Part shown: positions 1,756 to 26,725 of the stretch, one piece after another
Layout of the letters: each line of letters opens with the position of its first letter
Position numbering within the stretch: the first letter of the stretch is position 1
Made by a program: the position numbers and the translations under genes
Notes under the pieces: generated by a model
What the model saw: the letters and a program-made list of their open reading frames with translations, nothing else
Told to the model about the DNA's origin: nothing
Database searches by the model: none
NCBI GenBank assembly: GCA_017550285.1
Contig: JAFZPP010000021.1
Coordinates: 21,874-85,873, forward strand
Direction of reading: 5' to 3'
Origin: Oscillospiraceae bacterium
Lineage (GTDB): Bacteria; Bacillota; Clostridia; Oscillospirales; Ruminococcaceae
Length of the DNA stretch: 64,000 bases

Positions 1756-1795
1756 CAGCCGCGAAGCCTTTGACGGTTTCGCGGCTGTGCTTTTG
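1756..1795 (+). terminator. intrinsic terminator after pilin gene 2
   Basis: Stem cagccgcgaa/ttcgcggctg followed by tgcttttgg. Confidence 0.7.
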
Positions 1796-1800
1796 GTGTG

Positions 1801-1862
1801 CTGAAAAGCCGCTGAATCCGGCAATCTGCTTGGATTCAGCGGCTTTCTCTTTTGTAGGATTC
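1801..1862. terminator. bidirectional hairpin terminator between the pilin locus (+) and GH5 gene 1 (-)
   Basis: 15-bp stem aaagccgctgaatcc/ggattcagcggcttt flanked by A-run and T-run. It lies 4 nt from the GH5 stop at 1866. Confidence 0.7.
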
Positions 1863-1865
1863 TGA

Positions 1866-3725
1866 TTACGGCGCGAGCTCCGCGTCGGTGATGAGCTTTG
1901 CGATGTATCTGAGGATTTTCAGTGTGCAGTCGGAGGTGAGTGATGCGCCGCCTGCAACATTCGCATTCAGTTTGCCGTTTTCCGTGATCTGCGCGCCAGC
2001 GTCCTCAGCCACAAAGCGGCTGACAAGAACAGCATCGGAAACATCCACCTTGCCGTCCTCATTCGCATCGCCCCACTTGATTTGTCCGGTTTTGGACGTT
2101 GTTGTCTCGGACTGCGTGGAGGGTGACGTAGTCGTGGTCGGCTTTGTTTCGCTTGTTGTCGTGGTTGTAGTCGATACAGAAGACGAAGAAGTGGTTGTTG
2201 TGGTCGTCTCCTTTGTGGTATCGGAGCTCGGCTTGGTCGGCTGTGTTTCCGGCTGGTTGATATCAATCTTATTGCCCTTGCTGCCCTTTGAACCGCCGTC
2301 GAGATTGCTGCTCTCGCCGGATGCGTAATATTCCGACAGCGAGACGCCGTTTTTGCCGAGTGCGACCTGATGATCGAGACCGATGTACTTGCCGGATGCG
2401 GTCTGCCAGAGCGCTTCTTCAAAGAGCTCATATTTCGGCTCATTCCATTTGATCGTCGTACCGGAGCCAGCCTGGAAGCCCAGACCGTCCCAGAGTCCGC
2501 CGGTATCGCCGGAATTGGTGTTCAGGCACCAGAAGGTGTGGTTGATGTGATGCTTGATCATGTAATCGCGCAGCAGCTTCATCCACTTGAGATTGTCGCC
2601 TTCCATATGACCGCCCCATTCGCCGATCAGCTCCGGTGCGATGTCCTCGGCATTGATGTATGCCCATGTATCGTACCAGTAGTCATCGAGCAGGGTCTGT
2701 TCGGTGAAGTCCTTGTCGAACCATGTCTGTGCATAAACGGACGGACCGTAGTCATGCGGCGAATAGACAATCTGGCTTGTGCCGTGCTTCGGCTTGATCG
2801 GGTATTCGCGTGCGCCGCGGAAATTGCCGCCCCACCATGCGCCGATATACGGGGAATTGTCGCGTCTGTCGGCGATACCCCAGTAATCGCCTTCCTTTGC
2901 GCCGCTGAGCGACTGCTCAACGCCTTCAATCAGGATCAGTGCGTTCGGGTTGACATCGAGGATTGCGTCTGCACATTTCGTCGCAGCGTATGCCCAGTTG
3001 TTCTCATCCGTGGAGCCGTCCCACTTGGCAGCTGCCTCGCCCTCCTGACCTTTGCCGTGCGGCTCATTTTTCAGGTCATAGGCGAGCAGGGTGTCGTCAT
3101 TCTTGTACTTGTCCGCGAGCCAGACGAGCGTATCAATCCAGACATCGGTCGTGACGCCTGCCTTGCCGTACCAGAGGTTGTAGTTGTGACCGGAATTGTC
3201 GGTATGCGGGCTGTGGATATCAATAAATGCCTTGATACCGTACTTTTTGAGCTTGCCCATGATGATGTCGAAGATTTCCATGCTGTTTTTCAGCGTTTTA
3301 CCGTCTGCTTCACAGAAATCCGGATTGATTGTAAACGCCGGATCGGCATTCGCAGAGACGCTGCTGACCGGATTCGGCGTGCCTGCCTTCCATGAGACCA
3401 GCAGCTCCGTTGCGATCGGGAAGCGGATGATATTGATGCCGCGGTCGGCGACTTCTTTCAGAACGTCGTCGATGTCGGCGCTCCAGAGATAGTGGACGCA
3501 GTTTTCCGAGCAGTTGAAGCCGAACCAGTTTGCACCGGTCAGCCAGACCTCGTTGCCGTCCTTGTCGAAGATGCGGCTGCCTTCACAGTGAAGCCAGTCA
3601 TCGTTCATGTCGTCTGCTGCATAGACGGCGGACGGCGCTTTCAGGCTGCTGCCCGTAAAGCCGACCGTGCCTGTCGCGGCGACGAGTGCTGCCAGACAAA
3701 GTGACAGCAGATTTTTGTTTCTCAT
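1866..3725 (-). CDS. GH5 endoglucanase (cellulase) with Thr-rich linker and C-terminal dockerin
   Basis: Signal peptide. GH5 motifs LKNEPHG (acid/base) and IGEWGG (nucleophile). Long T/S linker. Dockerin repeat WGDANEDGKVDVSDAVLVSRF... plus a second, degenerate repeat ending ...LKILRYIAKL. Confidence 0.92.
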   Translation of the reverse strand: MRNKNLLSLCLAALVAATGTVGFTGSSLKAPSAVYAADDMNDDWLHCEGSRIFDKDGNEVWLTGANWFGFNCSENCVHYLWSADIDDVLKEVADRGINIIRFPIATELLVSWKAGTPNPVSSVSANADPAFTINPDFCEADGKTLKNSMEIFDIIMGKLKKYGIKAFIDIHSPHTDNSGHNYNLWYGKAGVTTDVWIDTLVWLADKYKNDDTLLAYDLKNEPHGKGQEGEAAAKWDGSTDENNWAYAATKCADAILDVNPNALILIEGVEQSLSGAKEGDYWGIADRRDNSPYIGAWWGGNFRGAREYPIKPKHGTSQIVYSPHDYGPSVYAQTWFDKDFTEQTLLDDYWYDTWAYINAEDIAPELIGEWGGHMEGDNLKWMKLLRDYMIKHHINHTFWCLNTNSGDTGGLWDGLGFQAGSGTTIKWNEPKYELFEEALWQTASGKYIGLDHQVALGKNGVSLSEYYASGESSNLDGGSKGSKGNKIDINQPETQPTKPSSDTTKETTTTTTSSSSVSTTTTTTSETKPTTTTSPSTQSETTTSKTGQIKWGDANEDGKVDVSDAVLVSRFVAEDAGAQITENGKLNANVAGGASLTSDCTLKILRYIAKLITDAELAP

Positions 3726-3894
3726 TGGAAATTACCCCTCTCAAATTATTTTCACCGTTTCCGGTGTATCAACAGCAGGCGCGGATACCCGTTTCCGTGC
3801 CGATGCTGTTCGGAACAAAAATAAATAATATAATAGTATACGCTTCTGTCCGCAAGCCCACCCTCAGCACAATGGGGGTGGGCTTAGTACGGTT

Positions 3895-4548
3895 TCATTT
3901 GTTTTGTGATATTGTGCGATTCGTGATCTCAGTGCCGACTGAGGCGCCCTCAACCTGCATCTCGATTGTTGAGCTGGTGCCAAAAGTTTCTTCCGGACTG
4001 ACTGATTCGCAGCGGATGCTGCCGGTATCTGCATTCCAGTAGAAGGATGCTTTTTCATAGCGCGTAATTTCGCCGGTTTGCGGGTTCGCGTTTTCCAGCG
4101 GAAATTCGAGGTTTGCATAGCAGCTCGCCGGAAATTGGTTGCTGTCCAGTCGGCTTAGTATATTGGCGTCTGCCGGTACAGCAGGGTTCAGCGCTTTGAA
4201 AGCCATGCTGATCAGTTCCACATCTTCTTTCTTATCCCATGAATAGGATTTGCCGTTTTTATCCTTCACATCCGTGAAAAGCAGGACATTCAGCTTCTGC
4301 ACATTTGTCAGAAGCTCCTGCGGTTTCGGAACATTCACAGTCAGCAGACGGTCACCGGAATACAGCTTGGTTTCGAGCGTTTTATCCTGAATCAGTTTGC
4401 CGTCAGCTTCGGGTACCTCTCGGGACGAGATGACCTGTCTGGAATATGTTTTGCCTGAATTTTCGCCGATTTCGTATGCATCACCGATGACAATGATTTT
4501 GGTGACCGGTACCGAAATCGGCTCAGTCAGTTTTTTGAGTTGTCCCGC
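3895..4548 (-). pseudogene. start-less 217-codon ORF (truncated gene, or -1 frameshift extension of the upstream GH5 gene)
   Basis: The frame is open from 4548, but the first ATG/GTG/TTG is a GTG at 4338 with no RBS. The translation looks like a folded domain (…VTKIIVIGDAYEIGENSGKTY…ASFYWNADTGSIRCES…). The frame opens 7 codons before the GH5-2 stop. Confidence 0.45.
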
Positions 4549-6581
4549 TCAAGGTAGAGGTTGACCTGAAAATAATGCTTCGGTGCGGTCTGTGAAGCCT
4601 GCGGCGGTGCAAGCTCATCAGCCGTGATCAGCTTTGCGATATATCTGAGGATTTTCAGCGTGCAGTCTGCGTTCACTGCTGTGCCGCCTGTGACATTTGC
4701 ATTCAGCTTGCCCTGTGCATTGAGGTTTGCCGCTGCATCCTCGGCGACAAAGCGCGCGACGAGCACTGCATCGGAAACATCGACTGTGCCGTCCTCATTC
4801 GCATCGCCCCACACGGTCTTGTCATTCTTCTGTTCCGAAGATACGGATTTGGATGTGGACTCCGTCGTCTGTGAAGAAGAGACAGTCGTCTGGGAGGTTG
4901 TGACTGTTGTCTGCGAGGACGAAGCGGTGGTTGATGTGGTTTCGGATGTTGTTGCAGAGGTTGTGGTTGTTGTCGTCTGCGTCGTATCCGAAGCAGTCGG
5001 CTTGGTCTGCGTTGCATCAACCGTCTTGCCGTCAGATGTACTGCCGCCGTCAAGATTCGATCCTTCGGATTTGGACGGACCGGAATAGAACTCGTTCAGC
5101 GACATGCCGTTTTTGCCGAGTGCGGTCTGATGATCGAGACCGATATACTTGCCGGACTTGGTCTGCCAGAGCGATTCCTCGAAGAGACCGTACTTTGCCG
5201 CATCCCATTCTGCGAACTGCGTATCGAGCAGACCGCCGGTATCGCCGGAGTTCGGGTTCAGGCACCAGAAGGTGTGGTTGATGTGGTGCTTGATCATGTA
5301 ATCGCGCAGCAGCTCCATCCATTTCTGGTTCGGACCTTTATCCATATGACCGCCCCACTCGCCGATCAGCAGGGGAGCGATGTTGTCTTCGTTGATATAT
5401 GCCCATGTTTCGCGCCAGTAATCATCCAGCAGGGTTTCCGTAGAGAAATCCTTATCAAACCATGACTGCGCATATACGGACGGACCGTAGTCATGCGGCG
5501 AATACACGATCTGACCGGAATCCGGCAGAACAGGCAGATTTTTGACGCCGCGGAGATTGCCGCCCCACCATGCGCCGTACCACTGCTCTTCACCCGGCTG
5601 CGGCTGGAATTTATCAGGCATATCCCATGTGACGCCCTTTTCGAGTATCGGGGACTGTTCAATGCCTTCAACCAGAATCAGCGCATGCGGATTGACCTTG
5701 AGAATCGACTTTGCGCATTCCTCAGCGGAATACTTCCAGTTGTTCTTGTCGGTCGAATCATCCCATTTTGCCATTGCGGCAGGGCATTTGTTTCCGTCAT
5801 AAAGACGTTTGCCGTGCGGCTCATTTTTCAGGTCATAGGCAAGGATCGTATCATCGTTTGCGTATTTTTTTGCAAGCCAGGTGATCGAATCCTTCCAGTC
5901 ATCCCATGTGATCTGCTTCTTGGAGAAGTGACCGGTTGCCATGCCGTCGCAGTCGTCGGCGGTCTCCTCGTAATACCAGAGCGAATAGTTATGACCGGAA
6001 TTGTGAGATGCAGGGCTGTGGACGTCGATCAGCGCCTTGATACCGTATTTCTTGCATTTCTGCATGATGATATCAAAGATCTGCATGCTGTCCTTCATGG
6101 TTTTGCCGTCCTCCAGCACGAAATCGCGGTTGATATCGCCGTATTTTCCTGCCGGTGTGACGGTGCCGTCCTCACCGATTTCATCCTTCGGCGGATTGTA
6201 GCTCGCCTGAACGGATGAGACCGGAAGCGGCTCGCCGTCCATCCATGAGAGCAGAAGCTCTGTGGAGATCGGGAAGCGGATGATATTGATGCCGTGATCT
6301 GCGATGCTCGAAAGCATATCATCGACATCTCTTGCGTAAAGACCGTGCGGCACGTTTTCGGTACAGTTCATGCCGAACCAGTTTGCACCGGTCAGCCAGA
6401 CCTCATTGCCGTTCATGTCATAGAGACGGCTACCGACGGCATGGAGCCAGTCATCATTGCCGTCATCCACGGCGGATGCACGGAGGCTGTTCAGCGGCAG
6501 ACTGCTCTGCGGAAAGCCCGCGGTTGCAGTCACCGCCATGAGTGCTGCCAGCGATACCGACAGCAGTGCTTTGTGCTTCAT
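4527..6581 (-). CDS. GH5 endoglucanase with Thr/Ser-rich linker and dockerin, tandem paralogue of 1866-3725
   Basis: Same architecture and motifs (LKNEPHG, IGEWGG, WGDANEDGTVDVSDAVLVARF...LKILRYIAKL). It lacks the stop after ...ELAP used by paralogue 1 and reads on for 26 extra codons to TGA at 4527-4529. Confidence 0.92.
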   Translation of the reverse strand: MKHKALLSVSLAALMAVTATAGFPQSSLPLNSLRASAVDDGNDDWLHAVGSRLYDMNGNEVWLTGANWFGMNCTENVPHGLYARDVDDMLSSIADHGINIIRFPISTELLLSWMDGEPLPVSSVQASYNPPKDEIGEDGTVTPAGKYGDINRDFVLEDGKTMKDSMQIFDIIMQKCKKYGIKALIDVHSPASHNSGHNYSLWYYEETADDCDGMATGHFSKKQITWDDWKDSITWLAKKYANDDTILAYDLKNEPHGKRLYDGNKCPAAMAKWDDSTDKNNWKYSAEECAKSILKVNPHALILVEGIEQSPILEKGVTWDMPDKFQPQPGEEQWYGAWWGGNLRGVKNLPVLPDSGQIVYSPHDYGPSVYAQSWFDKDFSTETLLDDYWRETWAYINEDNIAPLLIGEWGGHMDKGPNQKWMELLRDYMIKHHINHTFWCLNPNSGDTGGLLDTQFAEWDAAKYGLFEESLWQTKSGKYIGLDHQTALGKNGMSLNEFYSGPSKSEGSNLDGGSTSDGKTVDATQTKPTASDTTQTTTTTTSATTSETTSTTASSSQTTVTTSQTTVSSSQTTESTSKSVSSEQKNDKTVWGDANEDGTVDVSDAVLVARFVAEDAAANLNAQGKLNANVTGGTAVNADCTLKILRYIAKLITADELAPPQASQTAPKHYFQVNLYLERDNSKN

Positions 6582-13406: not shown

Positions 13407-14831
13407 ATGGCACAAAGACAGCAGCTCCGGCAGCGTCCGCCGATTCCGGCGCTCGATGTATCCGCGCCGCGCAGCATGCGCAGAGCCGGAAAATGGACAG
13501 CACTCTTCCTGACCGCATTTATCATCGGGCTGATTTATCTCGGCTGGCGGCTGATTTCACAGTCTGCATTTTATATGGCAAAATCCGGACAGGCAACCTA
13601 CGGCAAAGTCACGGATCGTACCGGCGATGTGCTTTTTGACGGCACGCAGCCGCTGAACAATTATGAATGGGGACATTTCGCCGATGTCGGCAATCTGATC
13701 GGCGATACGAGCGGTCAGATGAGCAATACAGTTGTTGCGCGCAATCTGAGTGACCTTGTCAATTACAGCTTCACCTACGGCTCCGGCGCGGATGCGGCTG
13801 TGCTCGAAACAACGCTCCTGCACCGTGCAAACCGCGCGGTCTATGATGCATACGGCACGAAGAACGGTACGACAATCGCCTATAACTGGAAGACCGGCGA
13901 GGTGTATGTCTGCGTGAGCCGTCCCTGCGTCGATATTGCGCAGGGCTATGCGCATATCGCGGAAATGGCGGAGGGCAGTCTGCTCTGCAAGGCGTTCTGT
14001 CCGACCGTGCCCGGCTCGACGCAGAAGGTCTCGACGCTGCTTGCGGCATATCAGTCCGCAGGCGTGGATACGGTCAACGGGCAGCAGTTTACCTGTTCCG
14101 GTTCATGGACAAATCCGAACGGCGATGTCATCAAATGTCATCAGGACTACGGTCACGGTACGCAGGATCTGGCTGCGGCATTCGCAAACAGCTGCAATCC
14201 CTATTTTGCACAGCTTGTACAGTCCGGCATTGTGCCGCTCTCCGATATCATCACAAGCTATACGCGCATGGGCTATGCGGTCAACGGTGAGAAGGCAGAG
14301 CCGCTGAATCTGAACGGTATCGTCATTCAGCCCGCCTCGACAACGCTGACTGATAAAGACCAGTTTGAGACGGAATGGGGCGCACTCGGACAGGGCAAAA
14401 CGCTCGTCAGCCCTTTTCAGCTCATGCTCTGGCAGGGTGCAATCGCAAACGGCACCGGTACGGCAGTCAAGCCGTATCTGCTCAGTTCCAAGACCACTGC
14501 CGATCACAAGCAGATATCGCTTGCGTCGCATCTGCATACCGATCAGTTATTTACACCGGCTGCGGCAAAGGCAGTGCAGGAGGTCATGACGAAAAATGCG
14601 GCGGAGCATTACTATGTTTCGCTCGGCAACTATACCTGCGGCGTCAAGAGCGGTACCGCACAGGTCAGCGACGACGGCAGAAAGTATGAGAATTCGCTGC
14701 TGGTCGGCTACTGTCTCGATGAAAGCTGTCCGGTTGCATTCTGCATTCTGATCGAGGAGCGCGAGAGCTGGGATATCACGACGGCACAGATTGCCAAGGT
14801 GCTGCTTGATTCGCTCACCGGCAGCATATAA
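13407..14831 (+). CDS. penicillin-binding protein (class B-like transpeptidase)
   Basis: SxxK (STQK), SxN (SCN) and KSGT motifs are all present. Confidence 0.85.
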   Translation: MAQRQQLRQRPPIPALDVSAPRSMRRAGKWTALFLTAFIIGLIYLGWRLISQSAFYMAKSGQATYGKVTDRTGDVLFDGTQPLNNYEWGHFADVGNLIGDTSGQMSNTVVARNLSDLVNYSFTYGSGADAAVLETTLLHRANRAVYDAYGTKNGTTIAYNWKTGEVYVCVSRPCVDIAQGYAHIAEMAEGSLLCKAFCPTVPGSTQKVSTLLAAYQSAGVDTVNGQQFTCSGSWTNPNGDVIKCHQDYGHGTQDLAAAFANSCNPYFAQLVQSGIVPLSDIITSYTRMGYAVNGEKAEPLNLNGIVIQPASTTLTDKDQFETEWGALGQGKTLVSPFQLMLWQGAIANGTGTAVKPYLLSSKTTADHKQISLASHLHTDQLFTPAAAKAVQEVMTKNAAEHYYVSLGNYTCGVKSGTAQVSDDGRKYENSLLVGYCLDESCPVAFCILIEERESWDITTAQIAKVLLDSLTGSI

Positions 14832-14841
14832 GGAGAAAAAT

Positions 14842-17067
14842 ATGAAACTCCGCAGCGGATTTCAAATTTTGATACCGGCGGCAGCAGCGCTGTGCTTCGC
14901 CGGTATTTCCGTATTCCTTTGCAGCGCCGAGGATACACCGGCAGTCAGCCTGTCGGTTTCCGGCGTGTTTCCGCAGCCGGACGCGGCATCGGCGCAGGTG
15001 CATATGACTTATATTGACTGGGATCACAGCTGGTATCTCTTCCTGCCTGCGTCTGCCGACCGCGCGCATCTGACCGTTTCCTATGAAGTGTCCGGTGATG
15101 CGAAGCTGCTGCTCAATCAGCAGGAGATCATATCCGGCGCGGAGACTGACCTGCTCGGCAGCGCGGATACATTTACCTTGCAGGCGGGGGAGCATAATCT
15201 CGGGACGCTGCATGTGATGCAGTCGAATCTCGGGTGCATGTATGTCTCACTGCCGCCGGACGGGCTCGGTATGCTGACGCAGGAGAAGGAAACGGCGGTC
15301 ACCGGCGATGCGCTGATGCTCGGTGCGGACGGTTCCGTGCAGTATCGGGGGGCGCTTGAAAAGATCAAGGGGCGCGGCAATTCCTCATGGTATTACGCGG
15401 AGGAAAAAAAACCCTATAATTTCAAGCTGCCGGAGAAAACGGCGCTTTTCGGCATGGGCGCTGCAAAAAAATGGTCGTTGCTGAGCAATTATCTCGATCA
15501 TGCGATGCTGCGCAATGAAATTGCTTTTGCGATGAGCCGGAATGCAGGGCTGACCTTTACGCCGGATGCCGTGTTCATTGATCTGTATCTGGACGGCGAT
15601 TACCGCGGGGTGTATCAGCTGACCGAGCGCGTGCAGGTGCATCCGGAACGTGTCGGGATTACCGATCTGGAAAAGGCGACGCAGGCGCTGAATGAAAAGC
15701 CGCTCGGGGAATACCGCAGGCAGACTGTCGGCGGCACGCTCAACGGCGAGGAGAACGGCAGTTATCAGTATTATGAGATTCCGAATGATCCTGAAGATAT
15801 CACCGGCGGCTATCTGCTGGAGTTTCAGGTGCGCAGCCGCGCCAAGAACGGTGAATTCGTGACGGACCGCGGCGTGATTTTTGATGTATGTTCGCCGGAA
15901 TATGCATCGAAGGCGCAGACGGAATACATCCGCGGATTTGTGCAGGCGCTGGAGGATGCGGTTTATTCCGATACCGGCTGCAACAGTCTCGGCAGACATT
16001 ACAGCGAATATCTCGATGTCGATTCGCTTGCGCTCGGGTATCTGATACAGGAGATTACCGAAAATACGGACGGCTTTACAACGAGCTTCTATTTCTATAA
16101 GGAATCCGATCTGACCGGAGACGGCAAGCTGCATTACGGTCCGGTCTGGGATTTTGACCTTGCGTTTCAGAATTACAGCATGGCGGTCACCGATCCGGAC
16201 GGTGAAACACATTATTCGGTTGTGCCGGAAACAATCTATGCGCGCTATGTGCCCGTCAGCGGTTATTCGCCGGAGACTGCGCCGCTGACCGGCATCACCG
16301 ACCGTTCATGGATTCTGCGGCTCTGGGGGGATGATGCATTTGCGCGGCGTGCGGCGCTGCTCTATGAGCAGAAATTTGATGCGTATCTTGCAGCGCTGAC
16401 CGATCCCTCCGGCGGCATCATGCAGATGCGTGACGCGATTGCGCCTGCCGCGGAAATGAACCGCATCCGCTGGCATATGTTCGGCGGAAAGCCCTATAAG
16501 CCGATCGGTCCGGAAAACGGGACGACCTATGCGGAATGTGTGGAGTATATCCGCAGCAATCTTGCAAAGCGGCGCGCTTTTCTGCATGATGCATTTCTTG
16601 CGGAGACCGTGCAGCGCTGTCTTGCTTCGCTGACCCGTCAGACAACAGGGCGCCTCACGGAATATGATACCGAGGAGCAGAAAACGGTTTCCGTGCTGAA
16701 AAAATCGGTGTCGGACAAGCTGAAAGCGGCAGAATCCTCTGCGGCGGCGGAGCAGCTCATGCAGGATGCGGAACGGGAGCTTGCTGCGATTCCGCGTGCA
16801 TTCCGCTGCGGCGATTTCAACGATGACGGGACGGTCTCGCTGGAGGATGCGCAGATGCTGCTGATTTACTATGCAGAGACCGTTGCAGGCAATCCCGTGA
16901 CGCTCACCGCAACGCAGCGCCGCAACGGCGACACCGATCAGAACGGCGCGTTGGACGTTGCCGATGCAATGCATATTCTGCTGCATTATACGGCAGAGCT
17001 TTCCGGTACGGACTATCCGCTGCCGGTTTCAGAAGAAAACAAAACAGCCGCAGGACCGGATGAATAA
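14842..17067 (+). CDS. CotH kinase-family protein with C-terminal dockerin
   Basis: The start was trimmed to MKLRSGFQILIPAAAALCFAG (signal peptide). CotH signatures KGRGNSSW...KKPYNFKL...KKWSLLSNYLD...YRGVYQLTERV. Dockerin GDFNDDGTVSLEDAQMLL...GDTDQNGALDVADAMHIL. Confidence 0.85.
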   Translation: MKLRSGFQILIPAAAALCFAGISVFLCSAEDTPAVSLSVSGVFPQPDAASAQVHMTYIDWDHSWYLFLPASADRAHLTVSYEVSGDAKLLLNQQEIISGAETDLLGSADTFTLQAGEHNLGTLHVMQSNLGCMYVSLPPDGLGMLTQEKETAVTGDALMLGADGSVQYRGALEKIKGRGNSSWYYAEEKKPYNFKLPEKTALFGMGAAKKWSLLSNYLDHAMLRNEIAFAMSRNAGLTFTPDAVFIDLYLDGDYRGVYQLTERVQVHPERVGITDLEKATQALNEKPLGEYRRQTVGGTLNGEENGSYQYYEIPNDPEDITGGYLLEFQVRSRAKNGEFVTDRGVIFDVCSPEYASKAQTEYIRGFVQALEDAVYSDTGCNSLGRHYSEYLDVDSLALGYLIQEITENTDGFTTSFYFYKESDLTGDGKLHYGPVWDFDLAFQNYSMAVTDPDGETHYSVVPETIYARYVPVSGYSPETAPLTGITDRSWILRLWGDDAFARRAALLYEQKFDAYLAALTDPSGGIMQMRDAIAPAAEMNRIRWHMFGGKPYKPIGPENGTTYAECVEYIRSNLAKRRAFLHDAFLAETVQRCLASLTRQTTGRLTEYDTEEQKTVSVLKKSVSDKLKAAESSAAAEQLMQDAERELAAIPRAFRCGDFNDDGTVSLEDAQMLLIYYAETVAGNPVTLTATQRRNGDTDQNGALDVADAMHILLHYTAELSGTDYPLPVSEENKTAAGPDE

Positions 17068-17094: not shown

Positions 17095-18195
17095 TCAGGC
17101 AAGCCAGAGCGTGAGGCATGTGCAAAAAAAGATCAGTCCGCCGACGGCGAAAAACCAGAGACATGCTGCCGGAACGCTTCTGCGGTAGAACATATGCGGA
17201 TGCTGCGGATTGATGCGCACAGGCGCTTCATCCAGATTTGCGTCATCACGCAGAAGTCTGTATTCTCTGTGAATATAATACTTTCCGTTCCATTCGTATT
17301 TCCAGTAGTGCGTATACGAAAAATTGCTTTTGTTTGTACGGTGTCGTCTTTCGGCATGCACATCCTGATGTTCGCAGGCTGCCGTCACAATCTCGGAACA
17401 GGTCAGCCGTCTGAACAGAATAAAGATCAGCGGAGCGAGCATCAGCACGCCGCCGGATAACAGGAGAATCATGTTTGTAAGTATATCACGGCTCCGGAAG
17501 GGCTGTGCTGCATTGATCAGACCGGGAATCAGAATGCCGGCAGCGGCAGCTGTGAGAATGCCCCATATCAGCGCCGCGTCATGCCGCCCGTCCGCTGCAA
17601 GACTGACCGTCAGCAGCAGGCATCCGAGAAATCCGGAAGAAATGCCGAGCAGAAAGGCTGTCTGACCGGTAAACACAGTCGGGAAGACCAGAATTGACGC
17701 AATCAGGAGCACAACACCGATGCCGCAGGAAATCAAAATCCATTTAGCCGGTGTGTGCGGTTCAAAGTTTGTGTCTTCCTCTGCGTATGCCGGTGTATAA
17801 TTTGTTTTGAAGGACCACATGTTTGCATTTGCGCCGTCCTTCTTTTCGCGCCGGAGCTTGTCAATCACGGCGCCGACGGTCGGGCATCCGATTGCCAGTA
17901 CCAGCCCGATCGGCATCAGGAGTTCGCTCATATCCGGCGCGCTGTCATTCAGAAACGCGCCGACGCAGAATATGAGAATGCCGAGAATCATGGAAACCGC
18001 AACGAAGATAAACAGCCATTTCGGACCGTCGAGCGTGTTCATTTTCAATCTGCCGTTGCGCAGCTCCGGATGCTCCAGCAGGAATGCGCGGAATGCTTCT
18101 TCCTCCTCGGGTGTCGGTTTGCGCTGCTTTTTCAGTCCCGGCGAATCGTATTCCAGCGGCACGGGGCTGTTCGGATTGTAATGCTTCTGTTCCAT
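17095..18195 (-). CDS. polytopic membrane protein with a DUF3592-like C-terminal region
   Basis: Multiple TM helices. The C-terminal ...YTHYWKYEWNGKYYIHREY...VRINPQHPH... followed by a TM segment resembles DUF3592. Confidence 0.65.
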   Translation of the reverse strand: MEQKHYNPNSPVPLEYDSPGLKKQRKPTPEEEEAFRAFLLEHPELRNGRLKMNTLDGPKWLFIFVAVSMILGILIFCVGAFLNDSAPDMSELLMPIGLVLAIGCPTVGAVIDKLRREKKDGANANMWSFKTNYTPAYAEEDTNFEPHTPAKWILISCGIGVVLLIASILVFPTVFTGQTAFLLGISSGFLGCLLLTVSLAADGRHDAALIWGILTAAAAGILIPGLINAAQPFRSRDILTNMILLLSGGVLMLAPLIFILFRRLTCSEIVTAACEHQDVHAERRHRTNKSNFSYTHYWKYEWNGKYYIHREYRLLRDDANLDEAPVRINPQHPHMFYRRSVPAACLWFFAVGGLIFFCTCLTLWLA

Positions 18196-18217: not shown

Positions 18218-19249
18218 TTAAATCAATGCAGCTTCCAGACCGATCTTTCCGTTGATTGCAGGGGCGGCGCCGTCCCAGAGTACCTCATAGAGACGGAAGT
18301 CGAAGCGGAAGCTGCGCATATGTCTGACTGCGGAACTGAGCGGATGTGATGCATAGCCGCCCCAGATCAGCAGCGGGAATCCCGAGACCGCCGCGACGGA
18401 CCGCAGAAAGCGTCTGCACAGTGCCGGATCATTGTCCCGAACGTAGAGATAGGACACAACGCCGTGCCGGATTTCGCTGCCGGCAGACGGAATCTGCGGA
18501 TAGCCTGTCAGCTGAACCGGCAGCTTTGTGAGCTTATCGCAGGCGCCGTGATAGGCGCGGATTTTGTAGGATTTGGTCTGCTGCTGATCGCTGACAAAGC
18601 AGCAGGCGAGCAGCTCGCCGTTTCTGCGGTAGCCGAAGAAACGCCGTTTGCCGAAGCCTGCGTAATCCGGTTTGCAGGGCGTGAGCGCATACTGCGAATA
18701 GTACAGATGCATCAGCGTATCAAAGCCGTCTTTGCGCGATTGCAGCGGCAGCAGCTTTTTGTCGCCGCGGAAACAGTAGACGGTGTATTTCCCGAGATAC
18801 CGGTGCGCCGGAAGGCTGCGGTGCTGCTGCTCGAGTATGCCGATCAGGCGCGCATCGGATTCCGGTACGGCTGTATAGCAGCAGGCACAGTCCGAAAGCT
18901 GCGCTCCGAGCAGCGCATACATTTCTGCGGTCTGCCGGAAGGTGCTCTGATAGGCTTTGTGAATCCGGAGCCGCGGCAGATAGGCGCAGCGTGAGGGAAT
19001 GCCGCCGAGGTATTCGGTTCGCATGATTACGCCGCCGACTGCGGCAAGCCTGCCGATTTCCGCATCGTCTGCGGTGATGAGCCGGACGTCATCGCCGTCT
19101 GCGCTGTAGGAAGTCAGGGGAGATTCGCCGCGCAGCTGCTGTACGTCGATGCTGCCGCCGGTGCCGGAATGTGATAAGATACTGCGGATGCCGTCATTGT
19201 CCTGCGGAAGGGCGGGACGCAGGGTCAGTTTATTGGTTCGATTCTGCAT
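18218..19249 (-). CDS. hypothetical protein (possibly GNAT-like fold)
   Basis: 343-aa ORF with coding-like composition. No confident family assignment. Confidence 0.6.
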   Translation of the reverse strand: MQNRTNKLTLRPALPQDNDGIRSILSHSGTGGSIDVQQLRGESPLTSYSADGDDVRLITADDAEIGRLAAVGGVIMRTEYLGGIPSRCAYLPRLRIHKAYQSTFRQTAEMYALLGAQLSDCACCYTAVPESDARLIGILEQQHRSLPAHRYLGKYTVYCFRGDKKLLPLQSRKDGFDTLMHLYYSQYALTPCKPDYAGFGKRRFFGYRRNGELLACCFVSDQQQTKSYKIRAYHGACDKLTKLPVQLTGYPQIPSAGSEIRHGVVSYLYVRDNDPALCRRFLRSVAAVSGFPLLIWGGYASHPLSSAVRHMRSFRFDFRLYEVLWDGAAPAINGKIGLEAALI

Positions 19250-21090: not shown

Positions 21091-22334
21091 ATACAAATGA
21101 TAACGATATTGCCGTATGTGAAGAATGCGGCAGCCGGTTCCGGCGCGGCACTTCCCGAATGAAGGCACTTTGTCCGGAATGCGCATCGGTGCTGTACGGT
21201 TATGAAAACTGCTGCCATGTGTTCCGGAACGGCGTATGTACCAAATGCCTGTGGGACGGGAGCAGAAGTGCATATATCAGATCACTTTCTGCGAAAGACG
21301 AGAGGAATGAACAATCATTGAAAACCAAGCTGTTACATGAAAATGATATCGAAGAAGCCGCGGCGCTGATCCGGCAGGGCGAGCCGGTCGGCATGCCGAC
21401 GGAAACGGTCTACGGGCTTGCCTGCGACGCAGGAAATCCGGATGCCGTGCGCAAAGTGTTTGCGGCGAAGGGCAGACCTGCGGACAATCCGCTGATCGTG
21501 CATATTGCAGATATCGCGGACTGGGCGCCGCTCGTGCAGGAGATTCCCCCGCTGGCGGCAAAGCTCGCAGAAAAATTCTGGCCCGGACCGCTGACGATCA
21601 TCCTGCCGCGCACGGAGCGGATTCCTTCCGTGACGGCAGGCGGGCTTGATTCGGTCGGCGTGCGGTTTCCGGCGCATCCGGTCGCGCAGGCACTGATCAA
21701 AGCATCCGGCGTACCGATCGCAGCCCCCTCGGGCAACCGTTCAGGCAGCCCGAGCCCGACGACCTCTGCGCATATGATGCAGGATATGGACGGGCGGATT
21801 CCGGCGGTCTTGGAAGGCGGAATCTGTCTCTGCGGCGTGGAATCGACGGTCATCGTGCTGGATGATGCAGAGACTGTCCGCGTGCTGCGGCCGGGCTTTG
21901 TGACGCCGGAACAGCTGCAAACGGCTGCAAAGCGCGTGATTGTCGATGATGCGGTTCTTGCGCAGATTTCACCGGATACGGTTGTCCGCTCGCCGGGCAT
22001 GAAATATAAGCACTACGCGCCGAATGCGCAGGTCACGCTTGTGCAGGGTGACCGCGATGCATTTCTGCGGTATATGGAGCCGCGGATTGCCGAAGGCGTC
22101 TGCGCACTGGTATTTGACGCGGATGCGGAAGCCTGTGCGGCATGCGGCATCCCCTGCAAGACCTACGGCGATACCGACGAAGCACGCGCGGCGGCATTTT
22201 TTGCGGCACTGCGCGATGCGGACGCAGCGCATATCACGCATCTCTATGTCCGCGCGCCCCGTACAGACGGCGTCGGGCTCGCGGTCTATAACCGGCTGAT
22301 CCGCGCTGCCGGCTACGATGTCGAACAGGCATAA
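21087..22334 (+). CDS. L-threonylcarbamoyladenylate synthase (Sua5/TsaC type) with an N-terminal Cys-rich extension
   Basis: The core motifs (GMPTETVYGLACDA, KGRPADNPLIVHI) and a Sua5 C-terminal domain are present. The first ~75 aa contain CEEC...CPEC...C..C motifs. Confidence 0.88.
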   Translation: MNTNDNDIAVCEECGSRFRRGTSRMKALCPECASVLYGYENCCHVFRNGVCTKCLWDGSRSAYIRSLSAKDERNEQSLKTKLLHENDIEEAAALIRQGEPVGMPTETVYGLACDAGNPDAVRKVFAAKGRPADNPLIVHIADIADWAPLVQEIPPLAAKLAEKFWPGPLTIILPRTERIPSVTAGGLDSVGVRFPAHPVAQALIKASGVPIAAPSGNRSGSPSPTTSAHMMQDMDGRIPAVLEGGICLCGVESTVIVLDDAETVRVLRPGFVTPEQLQTAAKRVIVDDAVLAQISPDTVVRSPGMKYKHYAPNAQVTLVQGDRDAFLRYMEPRIAEGVCALVFDADAEACAACGIPCKTYGDTDEARAAAFFAALRDADAAHITHLYVRAPRTDGVGLAVYNRLIRAAGYDVEQA

Positions 22335-23140
22335 AAATGCAGCGGAACCCGACATAAGCCGCCGGATTCCGCTGCATGGCAAAGTATGAATAGGGATTGA
22401 GTCATGCTGCGGTGCACGGACCCCGTGCAAACGTGCAGCCGTGCACCGCAGGGAACTATGAAATGCCGCCAGGGGGGAGGAGCGGCGTATTTTGCGTAGT
22501 TTAAGGTTCTGACAGATTCGTTACCGCGGCGTAATATGCGCCGGCAGCCGCCTGTCTTTCTGATCTGTAAGTGATTGATTTACGAATTCGGTTGATGTCA
22601 GGGCAGCCGCAATGCAGCCGCGCGGAGCGGATTTTGCACTGTCCGGTTTGCCGATGACATAATTTTCTGCCTGTGTTGTGCCGTATGCCTGCACAGCGGC
22701 AAGAATCCCCTGGTTTTCATCCGGCTTCGGGTCAGCGGCATTTTAAGTCAAGGGATTCCGGCCGTTCTGCTTCTTCTTGGCATTCATGGCATTCATGGTT
22801 GCATAAGGTTTCATTCGCTCCTGCGGCAGCCGGAACAGTACGGAAATTCCCTGCTGCTTGTCCCGCAGATCGCTCCTTCTATTCTGTCAGTCAGCATGAT
22901 GTCGGGGTTTGGGGGGTGAGAACGAAAACGGTGCGCCGCGGATGACACGTTTCCGCGCCGCTGTAATGGAAACAATCGGCGGCGGGAAATGTCTCAAAAA
23001 ATTTTTCAAATCAGTGATATGCACAAGAAACAGCACGGCGTTTTGTGCACTGTGACGATTTTTTCGGAGCAGTGGGACAATGCCGCATATAAATTGTTAC
23101 ACTTTATAAGGGTGAAACGGGAACGGAAGGAAGTGGAAGG

Positions 23141-23620
23141 ATGCAGGATGAAGCGTTTACTTCGCTTTACCGAAAGTATGCTAATTTTGTATACAGCATT
23201 GCGCTTTCCTATATGAAAAATCCGGCGGATGCGGAGGATGTCACTGCGGATGTCTTTGTCCGGCTGCTGGAAACAGATATCAGTTTTCCGGATGAAACAC
23301 ATGCACGCGCATGGCTTGCGACCGTTGTGCGGAACCGCTGCAAGAATCTGCTGCGGCACTGGCTGCGCAGAAAGCGTGAGGCGGAGGAGGTCATGGAGCA
23401 GATTCCGGTCAGCGACCGTGCCGCCGATGTACAGCAGGTCATGCAGGCACTGCTTGCACTGCCGGAGAAATACCGTCTGCCGCTGCTGCTCTTTGCGGTC
23501 GAGGGATATTCCGTCAGGGAAACCGCTGATATTCTGCATTTGAATGACAGTACCGTCCGGACGCGAATCGCCCGGGCGCGTGAAATGATCCGGAAGGAAA
23601 CGGGGGTGGATAACGCATGA
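23141..23620 (+). CDS. ECF-type RNA polymerase sigma-70 family factor
   Basis: Region 2 (...AEDVTADVFVRL...AWLATVVRNRCKNLLR) and region 4 HTH (...GYSVRETADILHLNDSTVRTRIARAREMI). Confidence 0.9.
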   Translation: MQDEAFTSLYRKYANFVYSIALSYMKNPADAEDVTADVFVRLLETDISFPDETHARAWLATVVRNRCKNLLRHWLRRKREAEEVMEQIPVSDRAADVQQVMQALLALPEKYRLPLLLFAVEGYSVRETADILHLNDSTVRTRIARAREMIRKETGVDNA

Positions 23621-24681
23621 AGCAGCAAGAACAACATGATACAGGGCTGTACCGGCAGCTGCACGGTGCATTTGATATGACGCCGGAACAGATGCAGCGC
23701 GTCCGTGAGGAGATTCAGCAGCGTGCTGCGGCGCAGGATTCCGCTCTGCCGGCAGCCGGACGGATCAATCTGAAAGAGGTCCGGCGGTTCAGTCTGCGCA
23801 CGGCGCTCTCGGCGGCATGTCTCCTGCTGATCGCAGGCGGCGGAATCCGGCTGTACCGCGGCGTAACGGATAATCCGATGACGCAGCAGAGCAGTGTGCT
23901 CATAGAAGAACAGCTGACGCCGCCGGCGGAAACAGTTACCGGAATCACCGTCACTGCTGCGAAGGGCACAACAACTGTACCGGAGACAACCCGTACAGCT
24001 TCATCCGTACAGCAGACAACGACTGCCGGAACGACTGCAACAACCGCCTTGCAGACTGCCGCTGATACCACGCAGTCCGCAGAAATGACCGAGCAGACAA
24101 CAACCGAAGAGACCGTTACCGCAACGGAAACGGCGGAGCAGACCACAACAACCCCGCCGACCACCACAACAGTCACAACAACGACCGCGGAGACGACGAC
24201 AACAACAACCGAGCCGGACAATACGTTTGAGATTGCGGAAACACCGGAACAGGCAAATATTGTGGTCGCTGATCTCACCTGTACCGCCGGCGGAACCGTG
24301 ACCGTGGATGTTGTACTGACAGAGGATCTGAACGTCGCAGGTTTCCAGTGCAATCTGCTGCTGAACTGTCCTGATGACGCGCCGGCACCGACGCTGCTCC
24401 GGCGCAGCACGGAAATCGTGCAGATGACCGGCGAGCATGTGATCTGGAATACGCCGTTCCCGGCAGTCAATCCGGAGGCGATTCTGGTATTCGGCGGCGA
24501 AAATGAAGTGCATCTTCCGGCAGGAATCAAGCTGCTCACGCTCGAGTATCAGATTCCGGAGGACGCCGCATCCGGTACGGTATACCGCTTCTCAAGCGAC
24601 AGTCTCCTGCTCTTTGCGGCGAAGGATTCCCATTCCGCACTCGCTGCAAGGATGTATCCCGGCAGCATCACCGTCGGATAA
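23617..24681 (+). CDS. putative anti-sigma factor: short cytoplasmic N-terminus, one TM helix, Thr-rich linker, C-terminal cohesin-like module
   Basis: ATGA overlap with the sigma gene. TM segment ALSAACLLLIAGGGI. About 100 aa of T-rich linker. The last ~150 aa (IVVADLTCTAGGTVTVDVVL..VAGFQCNLLL...LLTLEYQIPEDAASGTVYRF...GSITVG) follow the cohesin pattern. Confidence 0.75.
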   Translation: MKQQEQHDTGLYRQLHGAFDMTPEQMQRVREEIQQRAAAQDSALPAAGRINLKEVRRFSLRTALSAACLLLIAGGGIRLYRGVTDNPMTQQSSVLIEEQLTPPAETVTGITVTAAKGTTTVPETTRTASSVQQTTTAGTTATTALQTAADTTQSAEMTEQTTTEETVTATETAEQTTTTPPTTTTVTTTTAETTTTTTEPDNTFEIAETPEQANIVVADLTCTAGGTVTVDVVLTEDLNVAGFQCNLLLNCPDDAPAPTLLRRSTEIVQMTGEHVIWNTPFPAVNPEAILVFGGENEVHLPAGIKLLTLEYQIPEDAASGTVYRFSSDSLLLFAAKDSHSALAARMYPGSITVG

Positions 24682-24706
24682 AATCGCAGAAAATACAAAA
24701 TAGCCC

Positions 24707-24735
24707 TTGACTTTCGGCTGAAAGTATAGTATACT
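24707..24735 (+). promoter_or_regulatory. promoter about 300 nt upstream of rny
   Basis: TTGACT, 17 nt spacer, TATACT. Confidence 0.45.
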
Positions 24736-25036
24736 AAGATTGTGTATTATGCATTGCACCGGAAGTCAGGGCTGTTTCTGTTTCAGCCGGTGCTTCCGAT
24801 GGTGTTTTGCGGCAGATGCCGCTGCTGATCTTTTTTTGAACGCCTGTCGTGCTGCGCTCTGAGCTGCCGGCAGGTTTATGATATGGGTACCCGATGCGCA
24901 GAAATATATACATGCCGTCCGCCGGTGCCCTGTATGATAAGCATAAAACTGAATCATCCAACGGCGTGTTTCCTGCCGCAGAATCAAATGATAAATACAG
25001 AATATCAATTTGAGAATGTTAGGAGGAAAGCACAGT

Positions 25037-26725
25037 ATGACACTTAGTACCCTCATGCTGGTTGCGGCGCTGAATCCGGGGGTTGCCGTTCTGCTGATTA
25101 TTGTCGCACTGGTTGCCGGTGCGGCTGCCGGTTTCTTTATCGGTTCATCCAAAGCGAAGCAGGATGTCAATGCACAGATCGAAAAGGCAGAATCCCGCGG
25201 TGTCCAGAAGGGCATTGAGCAGCGCAAGCGTGATGCAGAGGCTGCAATCGGGAGTGCCGAGAAAGAAGCTGAGCGGATCCGGAGTTCCGCTGCCAAGGAG
25301 GCGGAGGACCGCAAAAAGGCTGCGCTCGTTGAGGCAAAGGATGAGATTTTCAAGCTGCGTACCGATGCAGAAAAGGAAATCAAGGACCGCAGAGCCGATA
25401 TGAGCCGCCAGGAGCGCAGAATCCAGCAAAAGGAAGAGAATCTCGACAAAAAAACAGAGCACTTTGAACGCAAGGAGGAACAGCTCCAGAATAAGATTCA
25501 TCAGGCTGAGGAGCGCCTTGCGGAAGCAGAGCAGATCAAGAAGGCAGGCAGCGAGGAGATCGAACGTCTCAAGCGCAGCGAAATTGATATGCTCGAGCGC
25601 ATTTCCGAGTTCACCAAGGAGCAGGCTAAGGATTACCTGCTCGAGCAGCTCGACCAGAATCTCGTGCATGAAAAGGCTGTGAAGATTGCTGCCTATGACC
25701 AGCAGATCAAGACCACCTGCGAGGACATTGCCAGAAGCCATATCTCCATGGCAATCGCAAAATGTGCCGCAGAACAGGTTTCCGAGGTCGCAGTTTCGGT
25801 CGTTCCGCTGCCGAATGACGAGATGAAGGGCAGAATCATCGGACGCGAGGGCAGAAATATCCGCTCCATCGAGTCCCTGACCGGCGTCGATCTGATTATC
25901 GACGATACGCCGGAGGCAATTACCCTTTCGTGCTTCGATCCGGTTCGCCGCGAGGTCGCCAGAATCGCACTGGAAAAGCTCATCGTGGACGGCAGAATCC
26001 ATCCGGCGAGCATCGAGGAGAAGGTTGACAAGGCACGCAGAGAGGTCGAAAAGCGCATCAAGCAGGAGGGCGAACGCGCCGTCCTGGAAACCAATGTCCA
26101 CGGTCTCAATCCCGAGCTGATCCGTCTGCTCGGCAGACTGACCTTCCGTACCAGCTACCGTCAGAACGTGCTGAACCACAGCATTGAGGTCGCAACGCTG
26201 TCGGGTATCCTTGCATCGGAGCTCGGCGTCGATGCCAATATGGCAAGACGCGCAGGTCTGCTGCATGATATCGGCAAGGCGCTGACCGCTGAGATCGAGG
26301 GTTCGCATGTCGCAATCGGTGTGGACGTCTGCCGCAAGTACAAGGAACCGGCAGAGGTCATCCATGCAGTCGAGGCGCATCATAACGATGTCGAGCCGAA
26401 GACCGCAATCGCATGCATCGTGCAGGCTGCCGATGCAATCTCCGCCGCAAGACCCGGCGCACGCAGCGAGAATCTGGAAAGCTACATCAAGCGTCTCCAG
26501 AAGCTCGAGGAAATCTGCATGTCCTATGAGGGCGTCGAAAAGTGCTACGCCATGCAGGCAGGCAGAGAGGTTCGCATCATGGTCAAGCCGGAGGTCATTG
26601 ACGATGAGCGCATGATTCTCGTTGCAAGAGAAATCGCGCAGCAGATCGAAAATGACATGGAATATCCGGGTCAGATCAAGGTCAATCTCATCCGTGAGAG
26701 CCGCGCGGTCGATGTGGCAAAATAA
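25037..26725 (+). CDS. rny: ribonuclease Y
   Basis: RBS AGGAGGA. N-terminal TM segment, coiled-coil, KH domain ([15 protein letters not shown]) and HD domain (LLHDIGK). The start was trimmed from 25010. Confidence 0.95.

Follow-up and report, generated by a model that had tools for sequence, protein, structure and literature searches.

In Acetivibrio thermocellum, cellulosome genes are controlled by autoregulated SigI/RsgI pairs, each made up of an alternative sigma factor and, from the same transcript, a single-pass anti-sigma factor that carries a CBM3, PA14, GH10 or Fn3-like outer domain (PMC4711584, PMC12484212). A 2025 review names only carbohydrate-binding modules (CBM) and Fn3-like domains as sensors (PMC12484212), and the Acetivibrio RsgI sensors have been reported to be absent from ruminococci (PMC11557425, PMC12663171). 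Among ruminococci, Ruminococcus albus 7 raises expression of an extracytoplasmic function (ECF) sigma gene, 2572, and of the adjacent gene 2573 for a transmembrane hypothetical protein 8-9-fold on cellulose (PMC4300822), and a 2026 survey in mBio, whose text contains neither "sigma" nor "regulat", describes single-cohesin proteins that several Ruminococcus species attach to the membrane by a transmembrane helix, and takes their role to be anchoring (PMC13463774). Here we describe an ECF sigma gene coupled to a gene for an anti-sigma-like membrane protein that ends in a cohesin, found in a 64-kb stretch of contig JAFZPP010000021.1 from a gut or rumen bacterium of the Oscillospiraceae; the whole of this stretch is referred to as the window, and all coordinates are positions within it. 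To our knowledge, the regulation of ruminococcal cellulosomes is largely uncharacterised.

The initial annotation of this DNA knew of no described sigma/anti-sigma pair with a cohesin sensor, and the searchable literature bears this out, in that queries for cohesin combined with anti-sigma, ECF or sensor terms returned no paper that describes an anti-sigma factor with a cohesin.

The sigma gene and its membrane partner

The first gene of the pair (ORF1, for open reading frame 1; 23141-23620, plus strand) encodes a protein of 159 residues that is entered at NCBI as MBR5362911.1, "sigma-70 family RNA polymerase sigma factor". It contains sigma-70 regions 2 and 4 only (Pfam Sigma70_r2, E 1e-15; Sigma70_r4_2, E 1.5e-15) and scores 88.1 bits on the NCBIfam ECF superfamily model TIGR02937, for which the cut-off is 42.9 bits; its nearest solved relatives are SigH and SigE of Mycobacterium tuberculosis and SigW of Bacillus subtilis. 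It is thus a small sigma-70 factor of the ECF type (group 4), as initially proposed. The second gene (ORF2; 23617-24681, plus strand) encodes 354 residues, carried at NCBI as the "hypothetical protein" MBR5362912.1, and its start codon shares the ATGA at 23617-23620 with the stop codon of ORF1, the overlap to which the initial annotation had drawn attention.

Searched as a whole, ORF2 has no match in Pfam or NCBIfam, and a query with its C-terminal module by itself was no more informative in either database. The layout first proposed for it, namely some 60 cytoplasmic residues, one transmembrane helix, a Thr-rich linker and a C-terminal module, agrees with its hydropathy and composition and with AlphaFold2 (AF2) predictions. 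Residues 1-58 are hydrophilic and contain no cleavable signal peptide; hydropathy and AF2 place the transmembrane helix at about residues 59-80 (23791-23856, plus strand), the top 19-residue hydropathy window being residues 59-77, and the charge pattern, with KEVRRFSLR preceding the helix, predicts that the N-terminus lies inside and the C-terminus outside. Just beyond the membrane, family alignments reveal a conserved extracytoplasmic juxtamembrane motif, D.P.TQQSSV..EEQ (23869-23916, plus strand), which is possibly a protease or processing site. It is followed by the linker (residues 101-209; 23917-24243, plus strand), in which 49 of 109 residues (45%) are Thr and which is likely to be a stalk spanning the cell wall; similar linkers occur in scaffoldins found by the profile search described below. 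ORF2 then ends at GSITVG directly after the cohesin, with neither a sortase signal nor an SLH domain, and so lacks the combination of cleavable signal peptide and C-terminal sortase signal or SLH domain that marks anchoring scaffoldins of the ScaE-like or SLH kind.

For the cytoplasmic part, AF2 run on residues 1-102 with 27 family members predicted helices at residues 8-18, 23-43 and 52-83 (block predicted local distance difference test score, pLDDT, 77-89 for the first two). The first two make up a segment at residues 8-43 (23638-23745, plus strand) in which the alignments show the family motif YRxLxxxFxMxPEQxxRVxxxI, and we propose that the segment is the sigma-binding part of the protein. 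The zf-HC2 domain and HxxxCxxC motif of class I anti-sigma factors are absent from ORF2, and residues 1-58 contain no Cys at all.

The C-terminal module (residues 210-354; 24244-24678, plus strand) had been called a cohesin on the basis of short motifs, and GGTVTVDVVL...VAGFQCNLLL, LTLEYQIPEDAASGTVYRF and GSITVG are all present in the translation. Searching Pfam Cohesin (PF00963) with the single ORF2 sequence gave no match, and such misses are common among ruminococcal cohesins. A profile built from four homologues, compared with the PDB, did recover cohesins: it matched cohesin 5 of Ruminococcus flavefaciens ScaB (5n5p_A) over its full length with an E of 8.7e-9 and also ScaB cohesin 3, with 5m2o_A and 5aoz_A among the matches. 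Thus, of the search by hidden Markov model that had been suggested as a check, the single-sequence part was negative and the family-profile part positive. The AF2 model of the module is a beta-sandwich jelly-roll (pLDDT 82; predicted template-modelling score, pTM, 0.79), and each of the 50 best Foldseek matches that it has in the PDB is a cohesin or a cohesin-like module, with template-modelling scores of 0.56-0.76. By homology and predicted fold, then, the module is a cohesin, which may bind a dockerin.

When 1.84 billion representatives were searched exhaustively with a profile, 199 matches were obtained. Among those listed were multi-cohesin scaffoldins with Thr-rich linkers, about 25 clusters of 340-400-residue proteins with the exact architecture of ORF2, and proteins of ~270-320 residues in which a signal peptide is followed by a dockerin in the N-terminal part and a cohesin at the C-terminal end. 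A first, word-indexed homologue search with ORF2 had given three matches, the Thr-rich linker probably swamping the rest; a search with the N-terminal alignment found one truncated family member, and a viral structure library yielded nothing informative.

One representative genome per species was scanned with an alignment of the sigma factor, and 16 orthologous loci were found in which sigma identity is 48-84%. All are from metagenome-assembled genomes, which carry the label uncultured Ruminococcus, Oscillospiraceae or Clostridia/Clostridiales; pig, sheep and roe deer are among the sources that their titles name. In 15/15 complete loci the downstream gene matches both the N-terminal and the cohesin profiles (the sixteenth is cut by the contig end), and the 4-bp overlap between the two genes recurs in 16/16. 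The same order and overlap are found on four metagenome contigs (L001, L002, L008 and L014); on a fifth, L011, the cohesin protein follows the sigma factor after a 3-nt gap in place of the overlap, and on L007, L009, L010 and L013 fragments of sigma region 4 lie upstream of the cohesin-protein gene, so that every metagenome contig examined that has upstream DNA carries a sigma factor before the cohesin protein. The initial annotation had suggested a check of synteny in other ruminococci, and the translational coupling of the two genes is conserved in all related loci examined. Patterns taken from the cohesin protein led to no confirmed locus when genomes were scanned with them; it was the better-conserved sigma factor that found the loci.

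Among family members the sigma factors share 54-84% identity and the partner proteins 23-38%. Within the species, 13 alleles of ORF2 from different samples are all full length, without a stop or frameshift, and keep the conserved cohesin motifs. More distantly, paralogous ECF sigma factors (33-44% identity) of Oscillibacter, Dysosmobacter and others also have adjacent downstream genes, usually overlapping, for single-pass proteins, and these partners have a similar short N-terminal helix, LYxETFSRLxASxEAKKEV, and other ectodomains. Such a constant cytoplasmic part joined to a changeable ectodomain is typical of anti-sigma factors.

Candidate promoter motifs, the divergent adaptor gene and the rest of the window

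An 800-bp gap (22335-23140) precedes the sigma gene. It contains, at 23074-23098 on the plus strand, an ECF-type promoter motif, GGGACA-N16-GTT (equivalently, GGGAC-N15-TTGTT), that is the sole match to GGGAC-N14/15-ATTGTT in 64 kb, where 0.03 would be expected, and that is kept upstream of the sigma gene in most orthologous loci. Its sequence and position make it a candidate autoregulated promoter of the sigma operon. A divergent copy, GAGAC-N15-TTGTT, lies at 22971-22995 on the minus strand, and the two are the only matches to GRRAC-N15-TTGTT in the window (0.27 expected). A position weight matrix (PWM) was built from 25 motif instances, the minus-strand site of the window being excluded from training; it nevertheless scored that site at 36.3 bits, the best in the window, and the plus-strand site at 28.1 bits, whereas the next site outside the locus reached 13.4 bits and shuffled sequences 17.

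Across loci, 29 instances of the motif have a rigid N15 and a few have N16, and where one intergenic region contains both copies, the distance between them is 79 bp in most loci, 78 bp in two and 99 bp in one. With three exceptions, instances are found only upstream of the sigma gene on the plus strand or directly upstream of adaptor genes on the minus strand; the exceptions are minus-strand copies in L020, L024 and L031, which have no adaptor gene directly downstream. A candidate promoter by its sequence and placement, the motif resembles in its geometry the promoters of M. tuberculosis SigH, the nearest solved relative of ORF1: these follow the consensus GGAACA / GTT, and their spacer is rigid, with an optimum of 17 bp (PMC6411747).

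Between the two motifs lies an inverted repeat, TGCACA-N18-TGTGCA (23020-23049), about 25 nt upstream of the -35 element of the candidate sigma promoter; in the alignment of this region the repeat has invariant columns. The more general form T[GA][CT]ACA-N14-24-T[GA]T[GA]CA occurs at the same place in 12/19 orthologous loci, with near-matches in the other seven, and the repeat is present also in loci without the divergent promoter. The repeat could serve as an operator at which a second regulator acts.

In most loci with paired motifs, the minus-strand copy precedes a divergent gene for a secreted dockerin-cohesin adaptor. Such a gene stands beside the sigma gene in 14 loci, among them L001, L011, L016-L019, L021 and L025-L030, and its products match Pfam Dockerin_1 and Cohesin, several of them above the cut-off; in L022, L023 and L031 the sigma/cohesin pair is present with no adjacent adaptor gene. 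Tandem copies of the adaptor gene occur in L017, L018 and L019 (~1764-3933, minus strand), the second directly after the first and without a motif of its own.

In the window itself, this gene is represented by a relic (22566-22835, minus strand). When the L018 adaptor was compared with the window by tblastn, its residues 185-279 matched a 95-residue remnant with 46.2 bits and 29% identity; the adaptors of L019 and L016 gave 43.5 and 30 bits, respectively, and the best of 100 shuffles gave 25. The remnant corresponds to part of the cohesin half; its reading frame is interrupted by a stop, five residues are missing from the IPEDA motif, and no ORF of at least 60 residues is found on the minus strand between 22430 and 22960. 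A terminator-like hairpin with an 18-bp stem and a T-run (22337-22377, minus strand) lies at the far end of the relic. By these sequence comparisons, the adaptor gene of this window has decayed, leaving its motif and its terminator hairpin behind, whereas the decay has spared the sigma/cohesin pair and the two promoter motifs.

The idea that the anti-sigma and adaptor cohesins share a specificity as close paralogues was considered and ruled out. The two kinds form separate clades (loci L016-L031 and the window). Members of the first share ~25% identity, across loci with 54-84% sigma identity, and members of the second ~47%; from one clade to the other it is ~20%. Relatedness is therefore no argument for a shared specificity. 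The ORF2-type cohesins diverge at an unusually high rate.

Elsewhere in the window, a CotH-family protein (14791-17067, plus strand) carries at its C-terminus a canonical dockerin of two repeats (23.9 bits on Pfam Dockerin_1), by which this CotH kinase-like protein is one of the organism's dockerin-bearing proteins. Two GH5 cellulases (1866-3725 and 4527-6581, both minus strand) have Thr/Ser-rich linkers and dockerin-like tails that score 22.2 and 18.2 bits on Dockerin_1, just under the cut-off, the second calcium-binding repeat being degenerate in each. The initial annotation had suggested these GH5 and CotH proteins as ones that the circuit might report on. Neither the regular expressions nor the PWM found a motif site near their genes, which we accordingly rejected as regulon members, and because the motif is confined to the sigma locus within the 64 kb, nothing ties them to the circuit. 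Between the CotH gene and that for peptide chain release factor 1 lie two ORFs without a Pfam match (17095-18195, 366 residues, and 18218-19249, 343 residues, both minus strand).

The pair lies between two housekeeping genes, that for Sua5/TsaC on the upstream side and that for RNase Y on the downstream side, and none of the remaining gene pairs of the window that overlap by 4 bp is a sigma pair. A terminator-like hairpin with a T-run (24810-24827, plus strand) lies 130 nt past the ORF2 stop codon; its assignment to the sigma operon is uncertain, because it is downstream of a sigma-70-like promoter match at 24707-24735. An Rfam search of 22200-25100 gave one sub-threshold microRNA match, which we dismissed as chance.

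A proposed signalling circuit and its alternatives

We consider it probable that the two genes form a cell-surface signalling unit consisting of a cohesin-bearing anti-sigma factor and its ECF sigma factor. In such a unit, the two-helix cytoplasmic N-terminus would keep the sigma factor inactive at the membrane, and the Thr-rich stalk of ~110 residues would carry the cohesin past the cell wall, where it would bind a dockerin-bearing protein. Contact gained or lost would alter the stability of the membrane protein and free the sigma factor. By analogy with other ECF anti-sigma factors, release would probably proceed through regulated proteolysis, for which QQSS..EEQ is a candidate site. The free sigma factor would then transcribe from GGGACA-N16-GTT promoters, that of its own operon included, and in most related species the divergent copy 79 bp away would drive the secreted dockerin-cohesin adaptor. 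Given paired promoters on the sensor operon and the adaptor gene, the ancestral circuit would therefore couple docking at the membrane to production of both adaptor and sensor.

It is a more tentative proposal, and one we advance as a possibility only, that the cohesin acts as a sensor of cellulosome assembly: the binding of a dockerin partner would determine how active the ECF sigma factor is, and the sigma factor in turn the amounts of adaptor and sensor. Ancestrally, the ligand may have been the dockerin-cohesin adaptor whose gene is divergent from the pair, or else a protein that this adaptor carries.

Several observations weigh against these proposals. Pfam, NCBIfam and the PDB, searched with the N-terminal part of ORF2 as a single sequence and with 27 family members, contain no anti-sigma domain that matches it, and an hhalign comparison of the ORF2 N-terminal family with the paralogue partners gave a match in the right register that is weak (P 0.014, probability 3%). 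We infer anti-sigma activity from gene coupling and predicted topology, and because of these two results it stays an inference. As to the output of the circuit, the adaptor gene is only a relic in this species, and no regulon members beyond the locus itself were found in the 64 kb. The fast divergence of the ORF2-type cohesins could, moreover, reflect relaxed constraint. Two alleles from this species differ by seven nonsynonymous and four synonymous changes in the cohesin gene, numbers too small to interpret, and by one nonsynonymous and three synonymous changes in the sigma gene, again too few for the ratio of nonsynonymous to synonymous rates (dN/dS) to be read.

The lack of a recognizable anti-sigma domain also favors the view that ORF2 is a mere membrane-anchored monovalent scaffoldin, the expression of which is controlled by the sigma factor without any control in the other direction. 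That view further has on its side the scaffoldin-like look of a Thr-rich stalk with a cohesin and the reading of transmembrane single-cohesin proteins of Ruminococcus as anchors (PMC13463774), yet about 58 conserved cytoplasmic residues with a family motif would be superfluous for a plain anchor, and it leaves unexplained the strict coupling to an orthologous ECF sigma factor. Paralogous sigma factors, furthermore, have the same type of partner without a cohesin, and anchoring is in any case compatible with sensing. We therefore regard a purely anchoring role as unlikely. What the module binds is a separate matter, since a genuine sigma/anti-sigma unit might use its cohesin fold to sense a glycan, a cell-wall component or a protein other than a dockerin. 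The best sequence and structure matches to the module are dockerin-binding cohesins of ruminococcal scaffoldins, the organism encodes dockerin proteins, and a dockerin is encoded by the linked gene of relatives, all of which make such a ligand improbable, even though Archaeoglobus 2xdh and Clostridium perfringens 2jh2, cohesin-like modules from outside cellulosomes, are among the Foldseek matches, and the ORF2-type cohesins are a fast-evolving clade of their own that is ~20% identical to the adaptor cohesins.

Finally, the unit might in this species be a leftover that is heading for loss now that the adaptor gene is already a relic, and the substitutions that separate the two alleles could be taken in the same sense. 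Both ORFs, their overlap and both promoter motifs are nonetheless intact, all 13 alleles keep a full-length protein with its cohesin motifs, and L022, L023 and L031 likewise have the pair without an adjacent adaptor gene; we think it very improbable that the unit is a mere remnant. A functioning two-gene signalling unit, with sensing of a dockerin partner as its more tentative part, is the interpretation that we prefer.

If the cohesin does sense cellulosome assembly, the locus would contain the first known transcription circuit to be gated by cohesin-dockerin contact, one that reads the state of the scaffold and not the polysaccharide, and in ruminococci no regulator of cellulosome genes would have been described before it. 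It would suggest a new principle, in which the assembly state of an extracellular machine is sensed through the machine's own plug-and-socket modules. For ruminococcal cellulosomes it offers a concrete candidate regulatory module, made up of a conserved ECF pair, shared motifs and an adaptor gene; a set of proteins now called "hypothetical" or "membrane-anchored scaffoldin" would be re-labelled, and the short promoter motif could be used for regulon prediction in complete genomes. A cohesin-gated sigma switch would also be a ready-made extracellular protein sensor for engineering.

Relation to known systems

Like SigI/RsgI, the pair consists of an alternative sigma factor and a single-pass partner whose outer domain is drawn from the cellulosome toolbox. 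Unlike SigI, however, ORF1 has region 4 and not a SigI-C domain, and in place of the carbohydrate binders of RsgI the outer domain of ORF2 is a cohesin, a module of the protein-binding type. Pfam and NCBIfam searches for the N-terminal and autoproteolytic middle domains of RsgI found no RsgI family match in ORF2 at E values up to 10. The likeness to SigI/RsgI that the initial annotation had drawn on is an analogy and not homology, although the proposed circuit would operate in the manner of both SigI/RsgI and ECF surface signalling.

The domain make-up of the sigma factor and its co-transcribed membrane partner are shared with B. subtilis SigW/RsiW and with M. tuberculosis SigH and SigE, as is the type of motif, a GGAAC-like -35 element and a GTT -10 element separated by a rigid spacer. 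Unlike the partners in these classical pairs, ORF2 lacks the class I anti-sigma domain of ~90 residues with its zinc motif, and it has a cytoplasmic part of two short predicted helices and a cohesin as its ectodomain. Short (class II) anti-sigma factors are represented by CnrY and NepR, and CnrY binds its sigma factor through a very short two-helix segment that precedes a single transmembrane helix; neither protein is known to have a large ectodomain. The resemblance of ORF2 to CnrY and NepR is one of size and predicted helices only, no sequence similarity having been found.

On the side of the scaffoldins, ORF2 has a cohesin homologous to those of ScaB, a Thr-rich linker and a single surface cohesin (cf. 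ScaE and ScaC), and the neighboring gene in relatives encodes a monovalent dockerin-cohesin adaptor of the ScaC type. The transmembrane single-cohesin proteins of the mBio survey (PMC13463774) may belong to the same or a related class. ORF2 is set apart from ScaB, ScaE and ScaC by its anchoring through an N-terminal transmembrane helix, by the conservation of its cytoplasmic domain and by the coupling of its gene to one for a sigma factor.

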